Of a stretch of DNA of 50,545 nucleotides, positions 11,563-34,139 are shown piece by piece; within the stretch, counting starts at the first letter, position 1, and every line of letters starts with the position of its first letter. Origin of the DNA: a virus (lineage: Duplodnaviria; Heunggongvirae; Uroviricota; Caudoviricetes). The DNA lies in IMG/VR virus record IMGVR_UViG_2617270947_000016; one strand, given 5' to 3'. Position numbers and translations under genes: made by a program. The notes under the pieces are model-generated. The model saw only the letters and a list, made by a program, of their open reading frames with translations. It had not been told where the DNA came from and ran no database searches.

Positions 11563-14132
11563 CCACCGCTCCCTGATAACATACCGCCATCACGCAACTG
11601 CAGCCGGAGTTCATCCTGTGCCCCCTTGCGGGCCATCTCATACACCGCTTTCATCAGCTGCGGCCCTGCCCGCCCGTTGGGGCCGTCGTTCTGAATCACC
11701 ACGTGATTGTTCTGATTAAAATTAATGCCTTCCGCCCGCCGCATCTGCGCCGGACTTCCGGCACCGCCGACATAACCACCTTCCGCATAGCCCCGCATCA
11801 GGCGGTACAGATTGCCGACACCAATCCGGCTGGTCGCCTCCTTCGTGAAGACAAACTCCCCGCGATGAACAATCCCCGCAGGTTCATATTTACCCCCCGT
11901 CCCCGTAAATCCCCCGGTCGCGAAATGGAAGTTCGCCGCCGCAGCCTGAATGGCTGTACCGCCTGACGCGGATGCGCCGCCACCAACAGCCCCGCCAATG
12001 GCGCTGCCGATACTCCCGACTATCCCCACCATCGCCTGCTTCAGAAAAATCTCTGTCAGCATGGACAGCACAGAACGGGTGAAACCACGCCAGTTCTGTT
12101 CGCTGCCGGTCAGCATCGCTGCCATATTCTGTGCAATACCGTCAAAGGTCTGCGTGGCCGCGTTTTTAACCTGCGAAAAACTGTCCGTCGCACTTTCCGC
12201 CCACTCGCCCCAGCCGGACTTCATCCCGGCCATCCAGCTTCCACGAAGCTGCTCCTCCGCAGACCAGGTGTTCTTCAGTGCAGATGTGGCCTTCGCCAGC
12301 GCAGCCGGATTATCACCGTACACCTCACGAAGGCGCTGCTCTTCCGACTCCCGCTGCGCCTGACGGTCGGTGAGTCCGCGGGCTTTTGCGCTGATTGCCG
12401 CCTGCTTCGCGCTCTGCTGCTGTTCAAACCGCGCCGCCTGCTGTGCCAGCTCATTCAGCCGTTTCTGGTGTTCTATCTTGTCGCCCAGCTCAGCCAGCTG
12501 GCGTTTGTACTCCAGCGTTTCTTTCTCATGGGCCAGCAGGGATTTTTCCTGCTCAGATAACTGCCGTTTCGTGGCGGCCTCTTTCAGGACCACATACTGA
12601 TTTTCCGCTTCCCATAAATCCCGGCGCTGCTGGCTGATTTTCTCATTCACACCGCTGTGTTTTTCCAGCGTCCTGAGCTCGGTTTCAAGCGCCAGCATGG
12701 CTGCATGCGCCCGGTCTTCCTGGCGCTCACCGGCAGACACCTTCACACCGGACGGCTTTTTCTGCGTCGACTCATAATCCTTTTTTGCCGACGCCATCAG
12801 CGTGTTGTAATCCGCCTGCAGGATTTTCCCGTCTTTCAGGGCCTTATTCAGCTCTTCCTGCCGGGCGGTATATTTCTCCAGTGGCGTCAGCAGGCGCTCA
12901 TACGCCTTCTGCGCCTCTCCGGTATACTTCAGCTGTGACGACTCACGCTCAGCCCTGTCCCTTGCCGCCAGTTCACCGGCTTTTTCCATATCCGACTGCA
13001 GCGTTACCGCTGCCAGACCCAGACGGGCATTTTCCCGGTCATCCCATGCGCCCTGAAGGTTGGCACGAAAAGAGGCGGTTTTTCCCCGGCGCTGGCTCCG
13101 GCTCTGGTACCACTGCCATTTTTTATCCGCCTCATCAAATGCCTTCTGTGCACTGGCGAGCATATCCGCTGAGGACTCAGGACGACCGATATCCAGAATG
13201 GCATCCCACATCGATTTGAATGCCTTCCCTGTTTTATCCGCCCAGGTCTCCAGTGTTCCCATGTTTTCTTTCAGGCGACGGGTCTGCTCATCAAAGCCTT
13301 TCGTGGCGATATCGTTCGCCGCCTGCAATGCCCCGGCCTCGTCTCCGGAACGCTGCAGCTGTGCAACATACGCAATCTGCTCTGCCGTCACGTTACGGAA
13401 CTGGCGCGCCATCGCCATCAGTCCCGACGTCGGGTCAGTGGTCAGCTTCCCGAAGGCTTCAGCGACTTTATCCACCTCCACACCGGATGCAGACGCAAAA
13501 CGCGCGACACTCTGGTTGATGGCATCAAACTGTTCACCACCACGCACACCGGCATTCACCAGGGCTGCCAGTGACTCTCTCGCCTGGTTAAACGTCAGCC
13601 CTGCTGCCTGCCCGGCTCTTGAGAGAGTCAGCATACGATCGGCAGTCAGTCCGGACTGATTACCGGAAAGAACCAGGGTTTTATTAAACGCTGAAAGCGT
13701 GGAATCTCCCTGGTACCAGGCGTACACCAGCGCACCTGTCGCCACCGCCAACGAGGTGACCCCGACCATCGGCAGGGTGATCGCACCGGCAAGCCCCCTG
13801 AACATGGGGATCATCCCGCCGAAGGAGTCCTTCACCTGACCGCCCTGTTGCAGCAGGATCAGCCAGGGATTCTGACCACCGGCAAGCTGCGTGGCGATAT
13901 CCGTAAACTGTGCGGGCAGGGTTCGCATGGCCGCTTTATACTGCCCGACGGAAATCCCGGCTTTTTGTGCAGCCAGCGCCTGGCGGCTCAGGCCCTGTTC
14001 AACAGCACTGGCGGTTTTTCTGGCGTCGGTATCCAGACCTGAAAAATGACGCCTTACCCGGCTCATCTGCTCATCGAAACGGACAGCATCCAGACTCAGG
14101 TCAATAACAAGATCACCAACCGGCTGGGACAT
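11559..14132 (-). CDS. H: Tail tape measure protein H
   Basis: 857 aa; MSQPVGDLVIDLSLDAVRFDEQMSRVRRHF... matches lambda H. Confidence 0.95.
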   Translation of the reverse strand: MSQPVGDLVIDLSLDAVRFDEQMSRVRRHFSGLDTDARKTASAVEQGLSRQALAAQKAGISVGQYKAAMRTLPAQFTDIATQLAGGQNPWLILLQQGGQVKDSFGGMIPMFRGLAGAITLPMVGVTSLAVATGALVYAWYQGDSTLSAFNKTLVLSGNQSGLTADRMLTLSRAGQAAGLTFNQARESLAALVNAGVRGGEQFDAINQSVARFASASGVEVDKVAEAFGKLTTDPTSGLMAMARQFRNVTAEQIAYVAQLQRSGDEAGALQAANDIATKGFDEQTRRLKENMGTLETWADKTGKAFKSMWDAILDIGRPESSADMLASAQKAFDEADKKWQWYQSRSQRRGKTASFRANLQGAWDDRENARLGLAAVTLQSDMEKAGELAARDRAERESSQLKYTGEAQKAYERLLTPLEKYTARQEELNKALKDGKILQADYNTLMASAKKDYESTQKKPSGVKVSAGERQEDRAHAAMLALETELRTLEKHSGVNEKISQQRRDLWEAENQYVVLKEAATKRQLSEQEKSLLAHEKETLEYKRQLAELGDKIEHQKRLNELAQQAARFEQQQSAKQAAISAKARGLTDRQAQRESEEQRLREVYGDNPAALAKATSALKNTWSAEEQLRGSWMAGMKSGWGEWAESATDSFSQVKNAATQTFDGIAQNMAAMLTGSEQNWRGFTRSVLSMLTEIFLKQAMVGIVGSIGSAIGGAVGGGASASGGTAIQAAAANFHFATGGFTGTGGKYEPAGIVHRGEFVFTKEATSRIGVGNLYRLMRGYAEGGYVGGAGSPAQMRRAEGINFNQNNHVVIQNDGPNGRAGPQLMKAVYEMARKGAQDELRLQLRDGGMLSGSGG

Positions 14133-22281: not shown

Positions 22282-24193
22282 TCACTCCTCCGGACAGCTT
22301 CGCTGCCAGTTCTTTAAGGGTTGGCCGGGTCGTCTCTTCTTCCCGGGATTTTGCCAGTACAGCCAGATCAAGCTGCCAGCGTTGCACGGACACACGTAAT
22401 GCCGCGTAGGCATACACCAGGCAGTCCAGCGCTTCGTTACGCCGCTTTTTGTTATCCCACAGCAGACGCATCTTTCCTTTTTCCCACTTCTCCACAAGCT
22501 CTTCCGCGACCAGTTGCTGCGCCTCTGTCTGCGAAAAAATCTCCGGATCATCAGGAAAACGGATGGCATACGACGTGGCTTCATCCACAGGCGTGGGATC
22601 GGCTTTCATACGGGCATAGAGAATTTCTTTTGCGGTGTCCGTCCCCACTTCACACAGATACACGCCCCGCTGATTGCGGGTTTTCGGCATGGTGATCACC
22701 GGCTTGCCATAGACAGATGCGCCTTTTACCGGCAGCACCCGGAAAACACCGTGTTTTTTTGACCTCTGATAAACGATTTCGCCATCGATCCCCCCGGTGT
22801 CCCAGCAGACACGGGAAATAGTCATTTCGGTTCCGTCTGCATGGCGGTATTTTTTGTTGATCGCCGCATCCACACGTAACAGCGTCTCTTCCTCATCGGG
22901 ACGCCCCATAATGATGATTTTATCCACCAGAAAGGCTTCCTCTCCCGGAGCCCATCCCCAGACATACATCTCAAAACGGTTTCGCTGCGAGTCAATGCCC
23001 GCCGTCAGATAAACCACCCGGGCAGGCACCGCCGCCGTGTAACGCACAACCTTATCCATCAGTACCTGGTGATCGAGTTTTTCGCCCACAGCCTCTTCCC
23101 AGGTCTCGCCCAGCGTGGTGTTCACAAAGGTTTTCAGGCCGTTGGGATCTTTCAGTGCATCCAGCCAGTCATAGACAATCTGTACCCAGGTGGTGAACGG
23201 ACTGTACGCCGTCCAGATATGGAAAGTGATGGAGCGCGGCGGCGGAATTTCATCACCCCGGGCGCTGAAAAACATCAGGCCGTCACGGGTCCACATGCCC
23301 GTGTTTTCACAGATCCACCGCCCGTTACTCTGGTCAAGCTCAGACTGATGGATCACACAGCCATGATGCTCACAAAGGTAGAAAACACTTTCTGGCTTAT
23401 TCTTCTCCCACTTAAGACCGAAAGGCGAGGCATCATCGCCAAATTTCAGATACTGCTCCTCCCCACAGTGCGGACAGGGCACATAAAAACGCATGAAGTG
23501 TGCCGACTCGTTAGCGGCTTTTTCGATCTGGCAGGTGCCTTTGATTTTAGGCGTCGAGCCGCGAATGGATTTGGGCCATACAGAGCCCTCAATACGTTTA
23601 TCCCCAAGCAGGGTTGGCGAACCCTCTTTTTCGACATCCGGTTCGAACGAGGAAAGTTCGTCATAGCAGACCACGTCCACGGATTTTTCACGGTAGTTTT
23701 TAGCGGCAGCCCCGCCCAGGCACCAGAAGCCCACGCCCGATGAAAAACGTTTCAGCGTGAGGGTATTATCACGATGTTTACGCCCAAACCACGGTGCAAG
23801 ATCGAGTAAAACCGGCACATCCCTGATCGTGGGTTCCACATGAGATTTCATAAAATCTTCAGCAGCAGAATCCGTGGGCTGGAAAAGAAGGCTGTTGCGT
23901 GATTTATGCTCAATAAAATAAGCCTCCACTCCCAGCAACATCTTTGTATAACCAACACGGGCAGATTTAATCAGATTAACAGTGCGGATCCGGTCATTCC
24001 CCATGCTGTTCATGATGGCAACCTGAAACGGCAGTGTTTCCCACCGCCCCGGGGTGTAAGATGACTCTTTCGGAAGGTAATAATGTCGATCTGCCCACTG
24101 AACTGTCGTCAGAGGGACAGGAATTTTTAGCGCAAGGAGGCCGGTTGCTATCGCTCCTGCAGAATTAGCCGCCCTCAGTTCGTCTGAAATCAT
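22265..24193 (-). CDS. A: Terminase large subunit A
   Basis: Blocks [33 protein letters not shown] match lambda A; start chosen at MISDELR (RBS AGGTGG), overlapping Nu1 by ~29 nt as in lambda. Confidence 0.93.
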
Positions 24194-24713
24194 CAATCCA
24201 CCTGCGCACATTCTCACCGGCTTCAGAAGCCACATCGGATGCTTTCGCGATTTCAGTTTTCACAGCATCAAGATGTACGGGTGATATATCAGGGTATTTA
24301 CGCTGCAGTGTCTGAGGGACACGGACAAGGATCCCTGATATATTCTGTGCCACTCGCTGAAAGATGTAGGTAAATAACTCCGTCTCGAGGACAAGGCCTT
24401 CCTCACGAGCATTTTTCAGCTCCTGTGCATCGGCCTGTGCCTTCGTCAGTCGGTAACGTTCGTAATCAATGGTGCCGGGCTGAAGGTCTGATTCGCTGGC
24501 AGCCCTCAAATCCTCGATCTCTTTACGGAGTTTTTCGTTTTCAATATCAGCTTCCCTCTGCGCATACCACTGAATGGCAGCAGTTGTATCAAAAACTGAT
24601 TCAGTCCCTTTCCCTCCACCAGAAACTAGTGGTAACCCCTGACTCTGCCAGGCGGTGATGGTCCTGACATCAACGCCAAAAATATCGGCCAGTTTTTTCT
24701 TATTGACGTTCAT
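24165..24713 (-). CDS. nu1: Terminase small subunit Nu1
   Basis: 182 aa; [19 protein letters not shown]...IENEKLR matches lambda Nu1. Confidence 0.92.
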
Positions 24714-24882
24714 ACACTCCCCCGGGAACCAGAAAGGATCTGAAAATGGCGTTTTCTAACAAAAACAGCCTTTGTCAGATCCTTTTATATTTTTAAAATT
24801 CTATTGATAATCAATCAGTTAAAAAGAAGAAGAACGGATCTGATTTTTCCCTAAAAATTTTCATAAATAGCGAAAACCCGCG
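24714..24882 (-). promoter_or_regulatory. cosB-equivalent terminase binding region between cosN and Nu1
   Basis: Position relative to cosN and Nu1 and strong similarity to lambda left-end sequence. Confidence 0.5.
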
Positions 24883-24894
24883 AGGTCGCCGCCC
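24883..24894 (-). other. cosN cohesive-end sequence (minus strand GGGCGGCGACCT)
   Basis: Reverse complement of 24871-24894 reads GGGCGGCGACCTCGCGGGTTTTCG, identical to the lambda left end as recalled. Confidence 0.85.
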
Positions 24895-25100
24895 CGTAAC
24901 CGGTCGGATCGCCGGAAAGGACCCAAGAAATGATAATGATTATCATCTATATAAGGTTTATCACAACATGTGTGTACGCCATCAAACCACGAGAAATAAT
25001 CAATTATGACGCAGGTATCGTATTAATTGATCTGCGTCAAATTAACGTAAAAGCAACTTCAGATAATACAAATCAGCAACACTGAATATGGGGAAACATT

Positions 25101-25286
25101 ATGTCATCAAAGAACAGAACCCGCAGAACAACAACCCGCAACATCCGATTTCCAAACCAGATGATTGAACAAATTAACATCGCTCTTGATCTGAAAGGTT
25201 CAGGAAACTTTTCAGCGTGGGTTATTGAAGCCTGCAGAAGAAGGCTGTCAACAGAGAGTTCGGGTATGAATTACATAATTAAGTAA
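25101..25286 (+). CDS. Hypothetical protein, homologue of the ORF at the right end of the lambda genome
   Basis: 61 aa; KNRTRRTTTRNIRFPNQMIEQINIAL...GSGNFSAWVIEACRRRL resembles the cos-proximal lambda ORF. Confidence 0.5.
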   Translation: MSSKNRTRRTTTRNIRFPNQMIEQINIALDLKGSGNFSAWVIEACRRRLSTESSGMNYIIK

Positions 25287-25909
25287 CATGGTGTTCACAG
25301 AACACGCAGTTACCGGACACATCAGTTTTCCATTCGCTCACCGGCAGTACAGGCTTCCCCTCTGACGGGATAGCCTGAAAAAATAACACAGAAAATTATT
25401 TGTTATAATTAATATAACTTACTCAAAAAAAAGCGACGAGAAAATCAGCATCAACGAACAATAAGCGCCAATACGTGATAACAAATGGCAGCCATATTTA
25501 TCTGCAGTATAAGCAATGGACAGGATAACCACACCAGAAACCGTCAGCATAAAATCCATTTGAACTTCCCCGGACAAAATCGACTCATCTAAAGATTTAC
25601 AGCTCTTTTTATTATCAATATGTTAAAAGTAAAATAAACAGATGTTCAATAACACGAATACAAAAACGTGCTGAAATTCAATGAATCCATTTCTGTGTCA
25701 TCAATTAATAGTGATAAACATCCGGCTTCTTCCACCATCGCACCGGACAGGCGACTATGAGGGGACAACGCCGCGCTCCGTTAACGCGGTAAACCCCGGT
25801 GTGTATCGTTTTTGATTATCCCCGCACACTCGCGCAGAGGAGTCTCCCTGCCGGGCTGCGGTCTCTGTTAATGAGGGAATACAGCGACGATACGGCGCAT
25901 CAACAAAAC

Positions 25910-26383
25910 TTATTTCAGGCACTGAGTGCGGATATAGTCCTGTGCCCCTTCCAGTTGCTTGTGCATCGTCATCAGCCGCTCTCTGAGGGTGAAATAATCC
26001 CGTGTAACGGTGTCTGCCAGTTGGGGGCCGGTTGCATTATCCACGCCGGAGGTGGTGGGGGCTTCACGCACGGAGCCTGGACAGGTGGCGTTGATCCGCA
26101 GGCGCTTACGACCAGCGGCAACATCAGCGCGCAGAGTTTCATTTTCAGCTCTCGCATCGGATAATTCCCTCGAGTATTTTGCATCGAGCGCAGCAACATC
26201 GCGCTGGCGCACCTGCATATCAGTAATGGTTGCGTTCGCCAGCTTCAGTTCACTGGCTTTGTTATCGCGCTGCGCTTTGTAGGTAATCGCGTTATCACGG
26301 TAATGGTCTGTTGCCATCCACAGCGCACCACAGGCCACCAGCAGAATAACGATAAACGCGGAAAGCATTCGGTTTATGTTCAC
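25910..26383 (-). CDS. Rz: Spanin inner-membrane subunit Rz
   Basis: 157 aa; [14 protein letters not shown]...DYFTLRERL matches lambda Rz. Confidence 0.88.
25972..26157 (-). CDS. Rz1: Spanin outer-membrane lipoprotein Rz1, embedded in +1 frame of Rz
   Basis: Lipoprotein signal ...[10 protein letters not shown] and proline-rich [14 protein letters not shown] matches lambda Rz1. Confidence 0.7.
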
Positions 26384-28266: not shown

Positions 28267-28482
28267 TTACTCTCCCCGCGCCGCCTTACGCCGGTCCTCT
28301 CTGATTTTGAAATACAGGTTAGTCAGATATGTCAGCAGCCCAAACAGCAGACTCCCCAGCACGCCTATTGCCGCCCACTGAGACGGGGAAACCCTGTCCA
28401 GCAACTGCAGGAACCAGTAGCCCGTTCCCACCGCTGACGTGGTGTATGACACACCTGTTGTGATTTTTTCCATCTGGTACAT
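28267..28482 (-). CDS. S: Class II holin (pinholin, phage 21 S-like) with dual-start motif
   Basis: C-terminal [46 protein letters not shown] matches S21-type holins; starts MYQMEK (two Met); ORF-track N-terminal extension not used. Confidence 0.85.
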
Positions 28483-28632
28483 ACCCCGTCTCCCGTTATC
28501 CGGAAGCTGACAACAATAAAAAAAGCCACCAGTTAAGTACTGATGGCTCTGATAACTCATGCAGGCATCTCAGACGACCCACTGACACTACCGGTGAGTT
28601 TAACGATACCTTCCATTTGGCTGGCTCACTTT

Positions 28633-30486
28633 TTATGATGATGCCGGTGCATTTATCTCCAGCACCAGACTTTCTATCTCAACGCCATACGTTGCATTTT
28701 TGGTAATATCCGTCAGCGTCAGTGCATTTAGTCCCACTGTCAGACTGTCTTTTATGACCTGGAATGCCGGGCCAGCCACTCCATTCAGTTTCGGAGTAAC
28801 CGTGGCACTGCCGGCGGTGAACACCAGCTCCAGCGTCTGCCAGTCGTTACTGTAATTCCCGAACTCGCCCAACTTTGTGTTTCCGGCTTTCTTGTGATGC
28901 ATCAGATTCAGTTTGCCGTCTGTGGTCTGGGTGAAGAACGACATCAGGAACGGGTTACCAGTCCCGGTCATCGCCACGACGTCAGGTAACGCTACATCGG
29001 TATACAGATAAATTCCCAGACCGAACTGGTTGTTGGTCAGTGCGCCTGACAGTCGAAACTTACAGCTCAGTCTGCCACCCCGTGTCAGCAGGGAGACTGC
29101 GTCATCCACCGGGCGCGTCAGGGACCAGGCTTTATTGCTCTGCTTGGTGATCTTAAATACACCATCTGACAACTGAATTCCGCCATTCTTAATGCTCCAG
29201 CCCTGCGCAGCAGCATCTCCGGCTGTCGGCAACAGGGAGATTGTGCGTACGGATGCATCTTCAGACGGCCCCGATGGCGTGTCGCCGCCGGGCGAGGGTT
29301 TGATTTCCGGTGCCTTACCACTGATGAAGGCTGAGGTGCGCCCGGCTGCGTTCAGAATAGCGGTTGCCATACGATCCGGAATAATGCTCCTGCGCGCCCA
29401 TGAACTGAAATGTGTCGGGCGGTTTGATGATACCTGGTTTCCATTCGTTCTCGATGCCGCACCGTAATATCCTGATGCCGGAATATCCGGATCTTCTGCC
29501 GGTGCGTTAGTGGCGGTATTGACGCCGTTACCGTCTGTCATGAAGGGCACAAAATAAACGCCCTCACTCTCCCTGTTTTTATACCCTCCGTACACGGTGT
29601 CGTACTGGGTAGCGTATGTATTTTTCCAGTAATACGTCGTGTCACCACAAATCCACGGTACAACTGCAGCACTGCCGCCATGGCACTGCGCGTTAAATCC
29701 GGAAAGGTCAGTACGGAACTGCTTCAGCATGGCCGTGAACAGGTCCGGTTGCTGTGCGTAGGTGGCAGCGCTCATGTCAAATTCGCCCTGCATCCAGCAC
29801 ACCGCCAGCAACACATTTTTCGGGTTCTTCTGTAATGCAGCTTTAGTGCGCGCAATCAGGTCCTGATATAGCGGTTTACCCACACCCCAGCGTGCCGAAT
29901 CCTGGCTGGCCCCCGCGTCCGCACTGAATGTCCCCTCCGCGCCCTGGGTGAATGCCGAACCACCACGACAGCATGGTACCAGCAGGATCCCCGCGTTATT
30001 CGGGATATACGGGAGCAGTTTTTTGGCAATATGTAAGCCCTGGCCGACACAGCCGTACTGCCCTTTGCTCAGGTCTGCCTTCGGATGATTCAGCGTACTC
30101 ATATCCTGCACATCATGCAGACAGTGGTCAGCCGGGATGATGTCGTTATACGTACAACTCTCTCCACCCGGAGTTACCGTGCTGCGGCGCGCCAGCTGTT
30201 TAATGCGCGGATCCGGAGCATCGTAAGAATCCGGTAACGGAAGCCCTTCACCGTAGGCCATGCCGTTGGACTGTCCGGCAAGCACAACCACGTAGAACCA
30301 GTCCGGCTCAGATGAAGGGCCGACCTGTGGATCTCCTTCAATAGCCACCGCCTGCATCAGTGTGTACGGCGTAATGGCAACCGGTCCGCCATATGGCTGC
30401 CAGCCCTCTTTCAGTTTGTGTGTCAGCTTTTCCGCAAGGTCTGACGGCGACGCCGCCCTGACAACATCATAGTGTTTAAATGCCAT
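28633..30486 (-). CDS. nanS: Prophage sialate O-acetylesterase (NanS-p-like; DUF1737 N-terminus plus SGNH/SASA esterase domain)
   Basis: 617 aa; MAFKHYDVVRAAS... N-terminus and VVLAGQSNG esterase motif; located between tRNA cluster and holin as in Stx-type prophages. Confidence 0.8.
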   Translation of the reverse strand: MAFKHYDVVRAASPSDLAEKLTHKLKEGWQPYGGPVAITPYTLMQAVAIEGDPQVGPSSEPDWFYVVVLAGQSNGMAYGEGLPLPDSYDAPDPRIKQLARRSTVTPGGESCTYNDIIPADHCLHDVQDMSTLNHPKADLSKGQYGCVGQGLHIAKKLLPYIPNNAGILLVPCCRGGSAFTQGAEGTFSADAGASQDSARWGVGKPLYQDLIARTKAALQKNPKNVLLAVCWMQGEFDMSAATYAQQPDLFTAMLKQFRTDLSGFNAQCHGGSAAVVPWICGDTTYYWKNTYATQYDTVYGGYKNRESEGVYFVPFMTDGNGVNTATNAPAEDPDIPASGYYGAASRTNGNQVSSNRPTHFSSWARRSIIPDRMATAILNAAGRTSAFISGKAPEIKPSPGGDTPSGPSEDASVRTISLLPTAGDAAAQGWSIKNGGIQLSDGVFKITKQSNKAWSLTRPVDDAVSLLTRGGRLSCKFRLSGALTNNQFGLGIYLYTDVALPDVVAMTGTGNPFLMSFFTQTTDGKLNLMHHKKAGNTKLGEFGNYSNDWQTLELVFTAGSATVTPKLNGVAGPAFQVIKDSLTVGLNALTLTDITKNATYGVEIESLVLEINAPASS

Positions 30487-30975: not shown

Positions 30976-31052
30976 TGGCGCGTTGTACTGGATTCGAACC
31001 AGTGACCGATTGCTTAGAAGGCAATTGCTCTGTCCGGCTGAGCTAACAACGC
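30976..31052 (-). tRNA. tRNA-Arg (anticodon UCU)
   Basis: 77 nt cloverleaf: acceptor GCGTTGT/ACAACGC, anticodon loop CTTCTAA, T-loop TTCGAAT, 3' CCA. Confidence 0.85.
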
Positions 31053-31065
31053 AGGGTACAGATAA

Positions 31066-31142
31066 TGGACCGCCATCGAGGACTCGAACCCCGCGCAACC
31101 AGCTTCGAAGGCTGGCGCTCTATCCTGATGAGCTAATGGCGG
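31066..31142 (-). tRNA. tRNA-Arg (anticodon UCG)
   Basis: 77 nt: acceptor CCGCCAT/ATGGCGG, anticodon stem CCAGC/GCTGG with loop CTTCGAA, T-loop TTCGAGT, 3' CCA. Confidence 0.75.
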
Positions 31143-31149
31143 TATGTGA

Positions 31150-31225
31150 TGGTGGCCCTTGCTGGATTTGAACCAGCGACCTGGCGATTATGAGTCGCTC
31201 GCTCTCACCACTGAGCTAAAGGGCC
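31150..31225 (-). tRNA. tRNA with CAU anticodon, ileX-like (tRNA-Ile2 / Met)
   Basis: 76 nt: GGCCCTTTAGCTCAGTGGT...CTCATAA...GGTTCAAATCC...CCA; resembles E. coli ileX. Confidence 0.8.
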
Positions 31226-32464: not shown

Positions 32465-32489
32465 TAAAAAAGCCTTCACTGCGGAAGGC
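32465..32489 (-). terminator. Rho-independent terminator at end of wHTH gene
   Basis: GCCTTC-N7-GAAGGC hairpin followed by T6 on minus strand. Confidence 0.5.
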
Positions 32490-32673
32490 GTCTGTAACAA
32501 CCGAACTGATAGTCTGCCAGACCCGCCATAACCAGCTGGGTCAGTATTAACTGGCAGCGTTCGCGTGAAAGGTAAGTATTCTGCGCTATCTCCCCGACTG
32601 TCGCCGGTTCGGTAACGCTTAATTCATTAAACACCACTCTGGCGGTTTCTGTCATATCCTGCTGTTTTAGCAT
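32476..32673 (-). CDS. Small winged-helix protein, PapI/FaeA-like
   Basis: 65 aa; pattern ...TVGEIAQNTYLSRERCQLILTQLVMAGL... resembles PapI/FaeA winged-helix regulators. Confidence 0.4.
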   Translation of the reverse strand: MLKQQDMTETARVVFNELSVTEPATVGEIAQNTYLSRERCQLILTQLVMAGLADYQFGCYRRLPQ

Positions 32674-32791: not shown

Positions 32792-32814
32792 AAAAAACCC
32801 GCTCAATGGCGGGG
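32792..32814 (-). terminator. Rho-independent terminator after membrane-protein cassette
   Basis: CCCGC-N6-GCGGG hairpin followed by T6 on minus strand. Confidence 0.5.
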
Positions 32815-32835: not shown

Positions 32836-33633
32836 TTAACTTGTTTGATTCTGTACTTCAGTGGCCTTCTTCCCTTCAATACCTGCCTTGAAAGTCTCGA
32901 ATGTTTCAACATTAAACAGCGAAAAAGATTCGATCTGATCGAAGGGCAACACATGCCTAAACTGATAAACTGACAATGGCTCAGAAGTTAATGTGATACC
33001 CTGACTAAGGTAGTAGTCCACATAATTATGCTCAACACAAAAAGTCAGAGTATCTTTATCTCTGTACCCGGACATAAAAGGGATTAGCACCAATGTGTTA
33101 GTATCTAACTGATTGAAACGTGCCTCATCAATCATCCCCACATAGACCTTGCGAGACTTCAGTGTAACCAACAATAACAATCCACGCTCAACTGATTCAA
33201 GAAGGATATTTTCCACGGCACTATGAGCCGCAATTTCTTCAAAAATAGCCTTGCGCTTTTGTGGGTCTTTATGGTTTTTGGTTGCCTCTGATGCCTTCCC
33301 GATACTTACAATAATAGTGAAAGCTATCGACATAGCAGGGAACATGCTCAACCCAAACACTCGCATTTTGAGAAAGTCATGGGCGAAAGTAAAGGGAGCG
33401 TACCAACCAAACAAGTACGCTGGAATGTTCCAAAGTGACATTCCAGCGTACAGAACAACAACCAATAAGGCAGCGATAAGAATACCACTTATGAGAAACT
33501 CACCACCTTTCAGTGCAACATCAAAGTATGCATTCCAACCGATCGCTTTGCTTTGACGGTATCGTGACGGCAAATGGCAGTTGGTATAGTGATAACCACA
33601 AACTAAAACAATAACAATCAGCGCAGCCCACAT
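32836..33633 (-). CDS. Hypothetical integral membrane protein (three N-terminal TM helices, ~150 aa soluble C-terminal domain)
   Basis: 265 aa ORF in visibly AT-rich DNA; start 6 nt after stop of upstream small gene. Confidence 0.6.
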   Translation of the reverse strand: MWAALIVIVLVCGYHYTNCHLPSRYRQSKAIGWNAYFDVALKGGEFLISGILIAALLVVVLYAGMSLWNIPAYLFGWYAPFTFAHDFLKMRVFGLSMFPAMSIAFTIIVSIGKASEATKNHKDPQKRKAIFEEIAAHSAVENILLESVERGLLLLVTLKSRKVYVGMIDEARFNQLDTNTLVLIPFMSGYRDKDTLTFCVEHNYVDYYLSQGITLTSEPLSVYQFRHVLPFDQIESFSLFNVETFETFKAGIEGKKATEVQNQTS

Positions 33634-33639
33634 AGAAGA

Positions 33640-33867
33640 CTAACCCTTCTTCTTAGTACTCAATCCCTTAATATTGGCTGCGAAAGCCTTTTGCACATCA
33701 GCGTTGTTGCGATTCAAAACCATCGAACCATTACTATCAATGAAAAACTTGTCACTTTCATGCTTAGCTTCTTTTCCATCACACATGGAAGCTATATCTG
33801 CAATTTTTTTGATGATCTTCTCAGGTGAGAGGATCGCGCGAGCGGCAAGTGTTAGATATTTCGGCAT
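33640..33867 (-). CDS. Hypothetical small basic protein (75 aa), first gene of two-gene cassette
   Basis: Internal start MPKYLTLAARAIL with strong RBS GGAGGGGAG; the ORF-track N-terminal extension is hydrophobic read-through. Confidence 0.55.
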   Translation of the reverse strand: MPKYLTLAARAILSPEKIIKKIADIASMCDGKEAKHESDKFFIDSNGSMVLNRNNADVQKAFAANIKGLSTKKKG

Positions 33868-34044
33868 GCTCCCCTCCGTTAACAGATAAAACACAAAAAG
33901 CACACAAACAAAGTATGCGCACATCCTAACCTATGTGGCTAACAACCACTTTCTTTTATAAGATGAGTGTATTACCTAAAGGGTAACTCGGCAATAGCAG
34001 AATAGTTTTAGCAAGGTAAAATCGATGGTCTTTCGCTCAACTTA

Positions 34045-34075
34045 CGACAAAAGATAGCCCGCTCAGCAGCAGGCT
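34045..34075 (-). terminator. Terminator-like hairpin downstream of Q-like gene (tR'-position candidate)
   Basis: AGCCTG...CGGGCT stem followed by TCTTTTGT on minus strand. Confidence 0.3.
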
Positions 34076-34139
34076 TTGTTTAGTTTGCCATCGTGTACAA
34101 AATCAGCAAAATATCAGATTTACACGAAATGTACGCGAT

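Follow-up and report, generated by a model that had tools for sequence, protein, structure and literature searches.

Here we describe a pair of adjacent genes, A and B, on the minus strand at positions 32,836–33,867 of a 50,545-nucleotide (nt) stretch of viral DNA (Caudoviricetes; IMG/VR record IMGVR_UViG_2617270947_000016; the whole stretch is hereafter called the window). The two genes encode a small, basic soluble protein and a larger inner-membrane protein, and they constitute an obligate, co-diverging pair. Comparison of their loci indicates that the pair is a horizontally mobile unit that resides mostly in prophages and moves between unrelated sites, and structure modelling predicts an Sm-like fold for the cytoplasmic domain of B. 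Judged from these comparisons, the pair is a good candidate for a hitherto undescribed system of phage defence or exclusion.

A two-gene cassette in the late region

An earlier reading of the window from its letters alone (the sequence-only reading) had described a soluble protein of 75 amino acids (aa) and a 265-aa protein with three transmembrane (TM) helices, encoded 6 nt apart. Open reading frames (ORFs), hydropathy and an AlphaFold2 (AF2) model bear this arrangement out on the minus strand. The strong ribosome-binding site that had been noted before A and the terminator-like hairpin after the Q-like gene are both present, and the pair is indeed AT-rich (G+C content of 41.5%, compared with 51.2% for the window), falling among the lowest 5% of sliding windows.

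Features of the cassette and its borders:
32836–33633, minus strand: gene B, encoding a 265-aa inner-membrane protein (phrog_3630) with three TM helices and a predicted cytoplasmic Sm-like domain
33298–33633, minus strand: TM region of B, aa 1–112 (from hydropathy, charge distribution, model helices and conserved columns)
32914–33219, minus strand: predicted Sm/LSm/Hfq-like domain of B, aa 139–240 (helix 139–150, then a bent β-barrel)
33634–33639, minus strand: A–B spacer TCTTCT (6 nt), consistent with translational coupling
33640–33867, minus strand: gene A (ATG 33867–33865, TAG 33642–33640), encoding the 75-aa basic soluble partner protein
33869–33877, minus strand: Shine–Dalgarno sequence of gene A, GGAGGGGAG, read from the sequence
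33920–33900, minus strand: weak hairpin and T-run just before the ribosome-binding site of A (motif scan)
33868–34047, minus strand: cassette-specific upstream region of ~180 nt, missing from prophages of the same Q type that lack the cassette
34075–34056, minus strand: terminator-like hairpin after Q (motif scan)
32792–32813, minus strand: intrinsic terminator directly after B, CCCGCCATTGAGCGGG followed by T6 (hairpin 32813–32798), a backbone element

A and B are real genes under purifying selection, given that the ratio of nonsynonymous to synonymous substitution rates (dN/dS) between the window and a 96%-identical copy (locus L002) is ~0.06–0.07 for each gene, and that at larger distances, at which synonymous sites are saturated, the proportion of synonymous differences (pS, 0.74–0.87) far exceeds that of nonsynonymous differences (pN, 0.15–0.42). 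The 6-nt spacing is kept in close relatives and gives way to a 1- or 4-nt gene overlap in distant ones. Upstream of A, the ~180-nt region is assigned to the cassette because homology to related Q alleles stops at ~34047–34080 (60–90 nt past Q). Motif scans found no σ70 consensus promoter upstream of A in the window or in a related cassette from Proteus (see below), and expression in the lysogen is thus only putative.

B is predicted to be a membrane-anchored Sm-like protein

The TM helices of B span residues 1–19, 46–68 and 93–112 (approximate borders). Positive charges are concentrated in the loop at residues 20–45 and beyond residue 112, which indicates an N-out/C-in topology with the C-terminal half in the cytoplasm; cytoplasmic loop 1 contains a conserved G32-W-x-x-Y-F motif. 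In the AF2 model, which was built from 46 homologues (pLDDT 89, pTM 0.72), the TM helices are followed by two juxtamembrane helices, a helix (139–150), a bent β-barrel (153–240) and a C-terminal helix. The model thereby displays the elements that define the Sm/LSm/Hfq fold—an N-terminal α-helix and five strongly bent antiparallel β-strands that form a small barrel—and Foldseek agrees with the Sm-like reading of the C-terminal domain. This predicted domain matches the cytoplasmic region of ~150 aa that the sequence-only reading had proposed. A search of viral structures in BFVD with B returned weak Sm-like matches only.

Comparisons at the level of sequence gave little further indication of kinship. 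The Pfam LSM and Hfq profiles, representing the Sm1 and Sm2 motifs, did not match B at E ≤ 1, and hhalign comparisons of B with AF-Sm1 and Hfq gave probabilities of <1%, although the β1–β2 segment VTLKSRKVYVG and the Sm1 motif were aligned in register. PDB sequences gave nothing significant with profiles of A and B, the best suggestive match being the Sm-like YaeO (E = 0.88). The sequence-only reading had recognized neither protein and had proposed profile, structure and PADLOC searches; A and B remained without a match in Pfam, NCBIfam, PADLOC (E ≤ 1, with no known defence system returned for either protein) or PDB sequences, RefSeq labels both as 'hypothetical protein', and PDB fold searches gave no whole-length structural match for B. 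B does match phrog_3630, a family of unknown function, almost from end to end (E = 1.8e-59; residues 1–257 aligned with profile positions 1–257 of 274).

Two turns are invariant in the B family, L158-K-S-R-K-V-Y-x-G166 and P185..S188-G-Y-R-x-K-D194, and further conserved residues are Y204 and E235-S-x-S-L-F240. By the general topology of Sm rings, both turns would be on the side of the ring away from the N-terminal helix, which in B would be the cytoplasmic side. Relative to the Sm/LSm/Hfq superfamily, including the ligand-sensing WYL domains, B differs in being anchored by three TM helices, in having a large insertion between β4 and β5, and in carrying its conserved residues in the β1–β2 and β3–β4 turns rather than in the canonical Sm pocket loops.

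The architecture of MscS can likewise be described as three TM helices plus a cytoplasmic Sm-like β domain. This likeness, together with chromosomal copies that lie among housekeeping genes in Photorhabdus, would suit a lysogenic-conversion factor that alters the physiology of the host as an MscS-like channel, for instance in ion homeostasis or in tolerance of envelope stress, with no role in phage conflict. B showed neither a match to the MS_channel profile nor a structural match over the whole protein, and the distribution of the family is patchy, rare and tied to mobile elements and to hotspots of fast cargo turnover. We consider such a role highly improbable.

A is a small basic partner protein

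The protein encoded by A has a pI of 9.67, a net charge of +6 and no hydrophobic segment. An alternative ORF of 94 aa with a start at 33924 is also possible; the 75-aa form is preferred because all homologues begin at the corresponding methionine and because the PGAP/RefSeq annotation gives the same start. The AF2 model of A (pLDDT 69.6 overall, rising to 80–85 for the hairpin and helix; pTM 0.35) consists of N-terminal helices, a linker, a β-hairpin (41–51) and a C-terminal helix (56–70), and it was too weak overall for a fold search. In alignments of homologues, the hairpin and helix carry a conserved core, KFFIDxxGSvxLNRNNxxVQKAFAxN. A search with A alone recovered just 13 close relatives.

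A and B occur together across a broad family

A word-indexed search identified 82 relatives of B in Enterobacterales, and a hidden Markov model scan of 1.84 billion cluster representatives with the B family profile gave 2,691 matches at E ≤ 1e-3. The family extends through Proteobacteria, Acidobacteriota and Balneolaceae and includes many chromosomal copies. A lies directly upstream of B in all 80 viral loci from IMG/VR and, as detected with an iterated A profile, in 64 of 80 genome loci (L001–L064), among them loci from Photobacterium, Psychrobacter, Shewanella, Snodgrassella and Advenella. At nearly all of the remaining, distant loci (Acidobacteriota, Balneolaceae, Pseudomonas and Legionella), an ORF of 53–97 aa abuts B, and these partner ORFs share a G-x-G-T-I/V-x-x-D ... 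helix pattern, that is, a hairpin followed by a helix. Genes in the loci of relatives were called with a simple ORF heuristic; in every contig that was examined individually, a gene of 61–79 aa either stops 6 nt short of B or extends into its start. The distance matrices of A and B are strongly correlated (r = 0.90; Mantel test, 0/2000), and clustering of the neighbouring genes revealed no conserved third gene.

A small gene tightly coupled to, or overlapping, a larger one is the classic layout of a toxin–antitoxin (TA) module. The pair also co-diverges and is found on mobile elements beside known TA genes (ParDE in L007, PemK/MazE in L003 and hokD in prophage D217-5), as would suit an addiction module in which B is a membrane toxin, A is its labile upstream antitoxin and the main role is to stabilize the mobile element. 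However, A contains no antitoxin or DNA-binding domain recognizable with Pfam, and the autoregulation usual for type II modules is not indicated; nor did either protein match a recognized type II toxin or antitoxin family in Pfam, NCBIfam or PADLOC. Stabilization alone would also leave the frequent placement of the pair in tail modules and in the P2 hotspot (see below) unexplained. We therefore regard a pure TA function as quite unlikely, although the functions of TA and abortive infection are not mutually exclusive.

The pair moves between unrelated genomic sites

The window itself corresponds to IMG/VR contig UViG_2619619132_000015. In lambdoid prophages, Q or NinG precedes the pair (at 11 loci identical to the window and at L107 and L122–L124), and in another lambdoid prophage, D217-5, it is on the opposite strand near hokD. 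Other positions are between the tail chaperone and tape measure genes of Proteus-type siphoviruses, between the tape measure and baseplate genes of one myovirus, between cueO and hpt in a chromosomal island of Photorhabdus, next to integrases and on large plasmids. A terminator-bracketed segment of 1.87 kb is common, at 98.9% identity, to the copies in the Proteus siphovirus and in the myovirus; the presence of this segment in two different tail modules indicates recent transfer of the pair as a unit. The Proteus copy, with terminators on both sides, has upstream of A a 265-nt AT-rich region with a palindrome, in which no consensus promoter was found. The palindrome is perfect, TTGATATTATCAA, and could be an operator. 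The 1.87-kb unit additionally contains a 77-aa ORF on the opposite strand that has no Pfam match (L004 5877–6110, minus strand; also in L005 and L006).

A place in the tail module between tail chaperone and tape measure is of the kind held by the HK97 exclusion moron gp15. Such a position, the nature of B as an inner-membrane protein carried by prophages and the invariant basic and aromatic loops of its Sm-like domain would be consistent with non-abortive superinfection exclusion, in which a ring of B blocks injection of the incoming genome and the cell survives, with A serving as an assembly or targeting factor. For example, B might use its basic Sm face to contact the entry channel, the DNA on its way in or the tape-measure protein. 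Kiwa and SNIPE are examples of known membrane systems that work at the stage of DNA entry (PMC13434031). Classical superinfection-exclusion (Sie) proteins, however, are narrow and phage-specific, whereas the B family is very broad with many chromosomal copies; almost no part of B is exposed to the periplasm, and a strict need for a small cytoplasmic partner is atypical of Sie proteins. Taking both sides together, we judge exclusion of this type to be unlikely.

The pair recurs in the P2 hotspot

The commonest site of the pair is the interval between the P2 replication gene A (gpA) and the portal gene Q, which accounts for at least 27 of the 80 viral loci, or 31 if truncated contigs are included (positions in viral loci come from tblastn searches with a few marker proteins). 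Further examples of this placement are L029, L031, L047, L050, Escherichia coli CFT073 and Salmonella phages SEN4 and SEN5. In the P2-like elements L050 and L169, the pair is essentially the sole cargo. In Klebsiella phage ST15-OXA48phi14.1, the pair lies in the same interval, with a TIR-domain protein encoded two genes past B and before the portal gene.

The P2 old/tin locus is an experimentally validated hotspot of anti-phage systems (Rousset et al. 2022, PMC9122126). The CFT073 pair appears in Table S5A of that study as 'hypothetical + hypothetical', and the B family corresponds to entries #43 and #57 of Table S5B, for which the count column, read here as occurrences, gives 93 and 75, respectively. 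Both entries carry the LKSRKVY and SGYRDKD motifs, have no domain annotation and bear the comment '2 TM'; the small partner is included in #57 but not in #43. For P4 hotspots, a 2026 study found that six of eight randomly picked unknown loci were defensive (PMC13586616). The pair recurs in a validated hotspot of mobile elements, as would be expected of an anti-phage defence system in general. The sequence-only reading had singled the pair out as its best candidate for an uncharacterised prophage-encoded system, a view partly supported by its conservation, its mobility, its predominance in prophages and its recurrence in the P2 gpA–gpQ interval.

Two of these loci have neighbours worth recording: in CFT073 (L180 5786–6937), the pair adjoins a Hypoth_Ymh (TIGR02391) protein, and in ST15-OXA48phi14.1 (L176 5059–6492), it has the TIR-domain neighbour mentioned above. 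Both neighbours may be independent co-resident cargo or functional partners.

A variable slot downstream of Q

The late region of the window is arranged in the order Q, A–B, a 65-aa winged-helix protein, a DNA methylase, three tRNAs, STnc100, a NanS-p-like esterase and the holin S, and is an stx-less version of the Stx-phage backbone. The sequence-only reading was right to place the cassette between Q and the methylase/tRNA cluster, but this is not the slot for stx: in Stx2_EH2201 and phiP27, stx follows the methylase and tRNAs, ~2 kb downstream of the A–B site. Its description of the cassette as self-contained found no support in the window: no σ70 consensus promoter was detected upstream of A, and the terminator belongs to the phage backbone because it is conserved at the same place in Stx2_EH2201 and phiP27, both of which lack the cassette. 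The stop codon of B overlaps the GTTAAG at which homology to the phages without the cassette picks up again, and in Stx2_EH2201, in which the A–B slot is empty, the terminator and the winged-helix gene come straight after Q. The cassette resembles a moron, as Juhala et al. 2000 use the term for accessory units that are autonomous, in its position between genes that are adjacent in related phages and in its deviant base composition; as to a promoter and terminator of its own, no σ70 consensus was found upstream of A, the downstream terminator is that of the backbone, and the Proteus copy has terminators on both sides. From its contents in related phages, the site just past Q is a variable cargo-exchange site that is separate from the stx slot.

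Because it comes first among the cargo past Q, follows terminator-like hairpins, has no detected promoter and shares the transcript of the holin and endolysin, the pair might instead serve a late-phase phage function from pR′ under Q, such as lysis timing, membrane remodelling or the shielding of progeny from re-adsorption. This would fit the position in the window only, given that the pair is also found in tail modules, at the P2 locus, near hokD, in islands and on plasmids. It is, moreover, missing from most close phage relatives (the exact window allele is rare, with 14 occurrences among 5,426 complete E. coli genomes). Neither A nor B matched holin, antiholin or spanin profiles in Pfam and PHROG searches, and the phage has its own P21-type holin; in other elements, the cassette is also located at a distance from lysis genes. 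A late-phase function accordingly receives very little credence from us.

Proposed function

The best-supported reading is that A and B are one functional unit and act as a mobile conflict module with a membrane effector; we assign an even chance to its abortive, gated-pore version. This reading, which is drawn from context, was reached because of the predicted fold, the invariant loops, the obligate and coupled pairing, the co-divergence, the transfer as a unit and the residence in a hotspot and accessory slots. The pair would be horizontally mobile accessory cargo, carried by temperate phages and genomic islands, and would take part in phage–phage or phage–host conflict. B would enter the inner membrane with its N terminus out and its C terminus in, and its Sm-like domains would, like other Sm-fold proteins, form a hexameric or heptameric ring below a membrane bundle of 18–21 helices. 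The invariant basic and aromatic loops (KSRK and SGYRDKD) could then provide a cytoplasm-facing surface for nucleic acid, a nucleotide or a partner protein. Co-translated A may bind B through its β-hairpin and helix, either keeping B inactive or serving as a sensor. On infection by a second phage, the complex might open and depolarize the membrane (abortive infection) or block genome entry.

Several observations weigh against this conflict-module reading. B has no significant sequence similarity to Sm proteins, and both the ring and ligand binding are extrapolated from the fold. PADLOC (PADLOC-DB v2.0.0, dated 2023) matched neither A nor B (E ≤ 1) nor any of 66 diverse relatives of B, and a PADLOC scan of immediate neighbours outside phages found only sparse, scattered known defence genes. 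Cargo without a defence role, TA modules included, also resides in P2 hotspots. Of the tables in PMC9122126, the hotspot table alone contains the family motifs; they are absent from that of the cloned systems, which indicates that the family was not among the systems assayed there. In the window, the cassette lies behind Q-dependent terminators with no promoter detected upstream of A, and expression of the pair in this phage may be late-lytic from pR′ after Q, not lysogenic.

A more specific version, to which we subscribe only tentatively and which we hold to be doubtful as it stands, is that the family represents a new, widespread class of anti-phage immunity in which a membrane-tethered Sm-like ring senses nucleic acid or a nucleotide on the inner side of the membrane through its invariant basic and aromatic loops and gates a multi-subunit pore of three-TM proteins, with a hairpin–helix protein of 55–100 aa as lid or trigger. 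Such a class would bring the first Sm-fold effector or sensor to prokaryotic immunity and is spread across Proteobacteria, Acidobacteriota and Bacteroidota-related lineages.

If active, the pair would give a function to an unannotated family of ~2,700 sequence clusters and would reclassify 'hypothetical' hotspot entries, including those of the P2-like prophage of the uropathogen CFT073 and the two E. coli P2 catalogue entries. It would also introduce a new structural principle into phage–bacterium conflict, that is, a membrane-anchored Sm/Hfq-like ring under the control of a tiny partner. With a cassette of two genes and ~1 kb, invariant residues that can be mutated and tractable host strains, the hypothesis is directly testable. 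Independently of function, the comparison defines a variable cargo slot just past Q in Stx-phage-like prophages.

Relation to known systems

The closest relatives of B are catalogue listings: phrog_3630, phrog_23864 and entries #43 and #57 of Table S5B represent the same protein family, with function unknown. Beyond these, 6 of 66 distant relatives of B gave weak matches to DUF6338 (PF19865; best E = 5.7e-5). In one of them, P0196, residues 3–195 aligned with profile positions 8–153 of 205, from the TM region into the Sm domain, with a score of 14.8 bits, below the gathering score of 26.5 bits. The window proteins themselves had no match to DUF6338, which is itself uncharacterized. These matches suggest that B and DUF6338 are remotely related. 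Literature searches for DUF6338/PF19865, phrog_3630, the WP accessions of the family and membrane Sm-like defence returned nothing relevant, the one paper naming DUF6338 being irrelevant.

RexAB, Kiwa (KwaAB) and Hailong (HalAB) offer a working analogy, as each has an operon, carried on mobile elements, for a membrane protein and a cytoplasmic partner. A nucleic-acid (DNA) ligand on the cytoplasmic crown of the Hailong channel HalA keeps it closed (PMC13434031). In contrast to the proteins of these systems, with which A and B share no sequence or fold similarity in PADLOC and PDB fold searches, the partner here is only 55–100 aa long and has no enzymatic domain, and the Sm fold is not found in RexAB, Kiwa or Hailong. 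HK97 gp15, lambda Rex and P2 old/tin share with the cassette a genomic logic, namely AT-rich accessory cargo between conserved phage genes at sites that include late operons, tail modules and the P2 old/tin locus; their proteins are unrelated to A and B, and the window cassette has no demonstrable promoter or terminator of its own.

Two specific identities were considered and rejected. The order of A–B, a small ORF and the TIR gene in phi14.1 led us to suspect that B was the '2TM' part of the AC1 system Rst_2TM_1TM_TIR (PMC9122126); the AC1 proteins of Table S2A proved unrelated, with other lengths and architectures and none of the family motifs. B is likewise not Rip1 or Hailong HalA, as the architectures differ and there is no full-length match in PDB folds.

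Already known, therefore, is a family listed in PHROGs and in the hotspot table without annotation or a recognized domain, and with no homology to described systems; what is added here is the modelled Sm-like fold of B, its universal pairing with a small protein, and the family's breadth and pattern of mobility. Among GenBank phage records, no match to the cassette was found at the DNA level, all matches being confined to the first ~120 bases of the query, in the region of the backbone terminator.

Other features of the window and related loci

The slot just past Q is occupied by a 409-aa protein of the GIY-YIG nuclease family in phiP27 (L177 5190–6419) and by a 286-aa DUF5677 protein in E. 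coli APEC 102026 (L179 3098–3958), which has the same Q type as the window. In L002 (E. coli strain 41; 1–321 and 11662–13445), the 96%-identical copy of the prophage region lies near genes of the enterotoxin A family, the phospholipase D family and a retron-associated HNH endonuclease, and the locus has a duplicated tRNA/holin segment.

Features downstream of the cassette and elsewhere in the window:
32476–32673, minus strand: 65-aa winged-helix protein (phrog_331) with weak TrmB/MarR matches
30976–31225, minus strand: tRNAs Arg-tct, Arg-tcg and Met-cat, arranged as in the Stx2a phage Stx2_EH2201
30709–30899, minus strand: full-length match to the Rfam small RNA STnc100 (RF02076; 139 bits, E = 1e-31)
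28633–30486: NanS-p-like esterase (DUF1737, SASA and DUF6645)
28267–28560: P21-type holin S
~24713–25910: stretch of lowest G+C content (~37.7%) with no ORF of ≥70 aa

The winged-helix gene, the terminator upstream of it and the methylase gene are kept in Stx2 phages and phiP27 and are thus backbone rather than cassette. STnc100 is flanked by the tRNA cluster and the NanS-p-like esterase gene, at the site that stx occupies in related phages, and a DUF1327 protein is also encoded in the late region. The stretch of lowest G+C content is located between a small-terminase-like ORF (24165–24713) and an Rz-like gene (25910–26383), and could hold cos, regulatory DNA or small genes.

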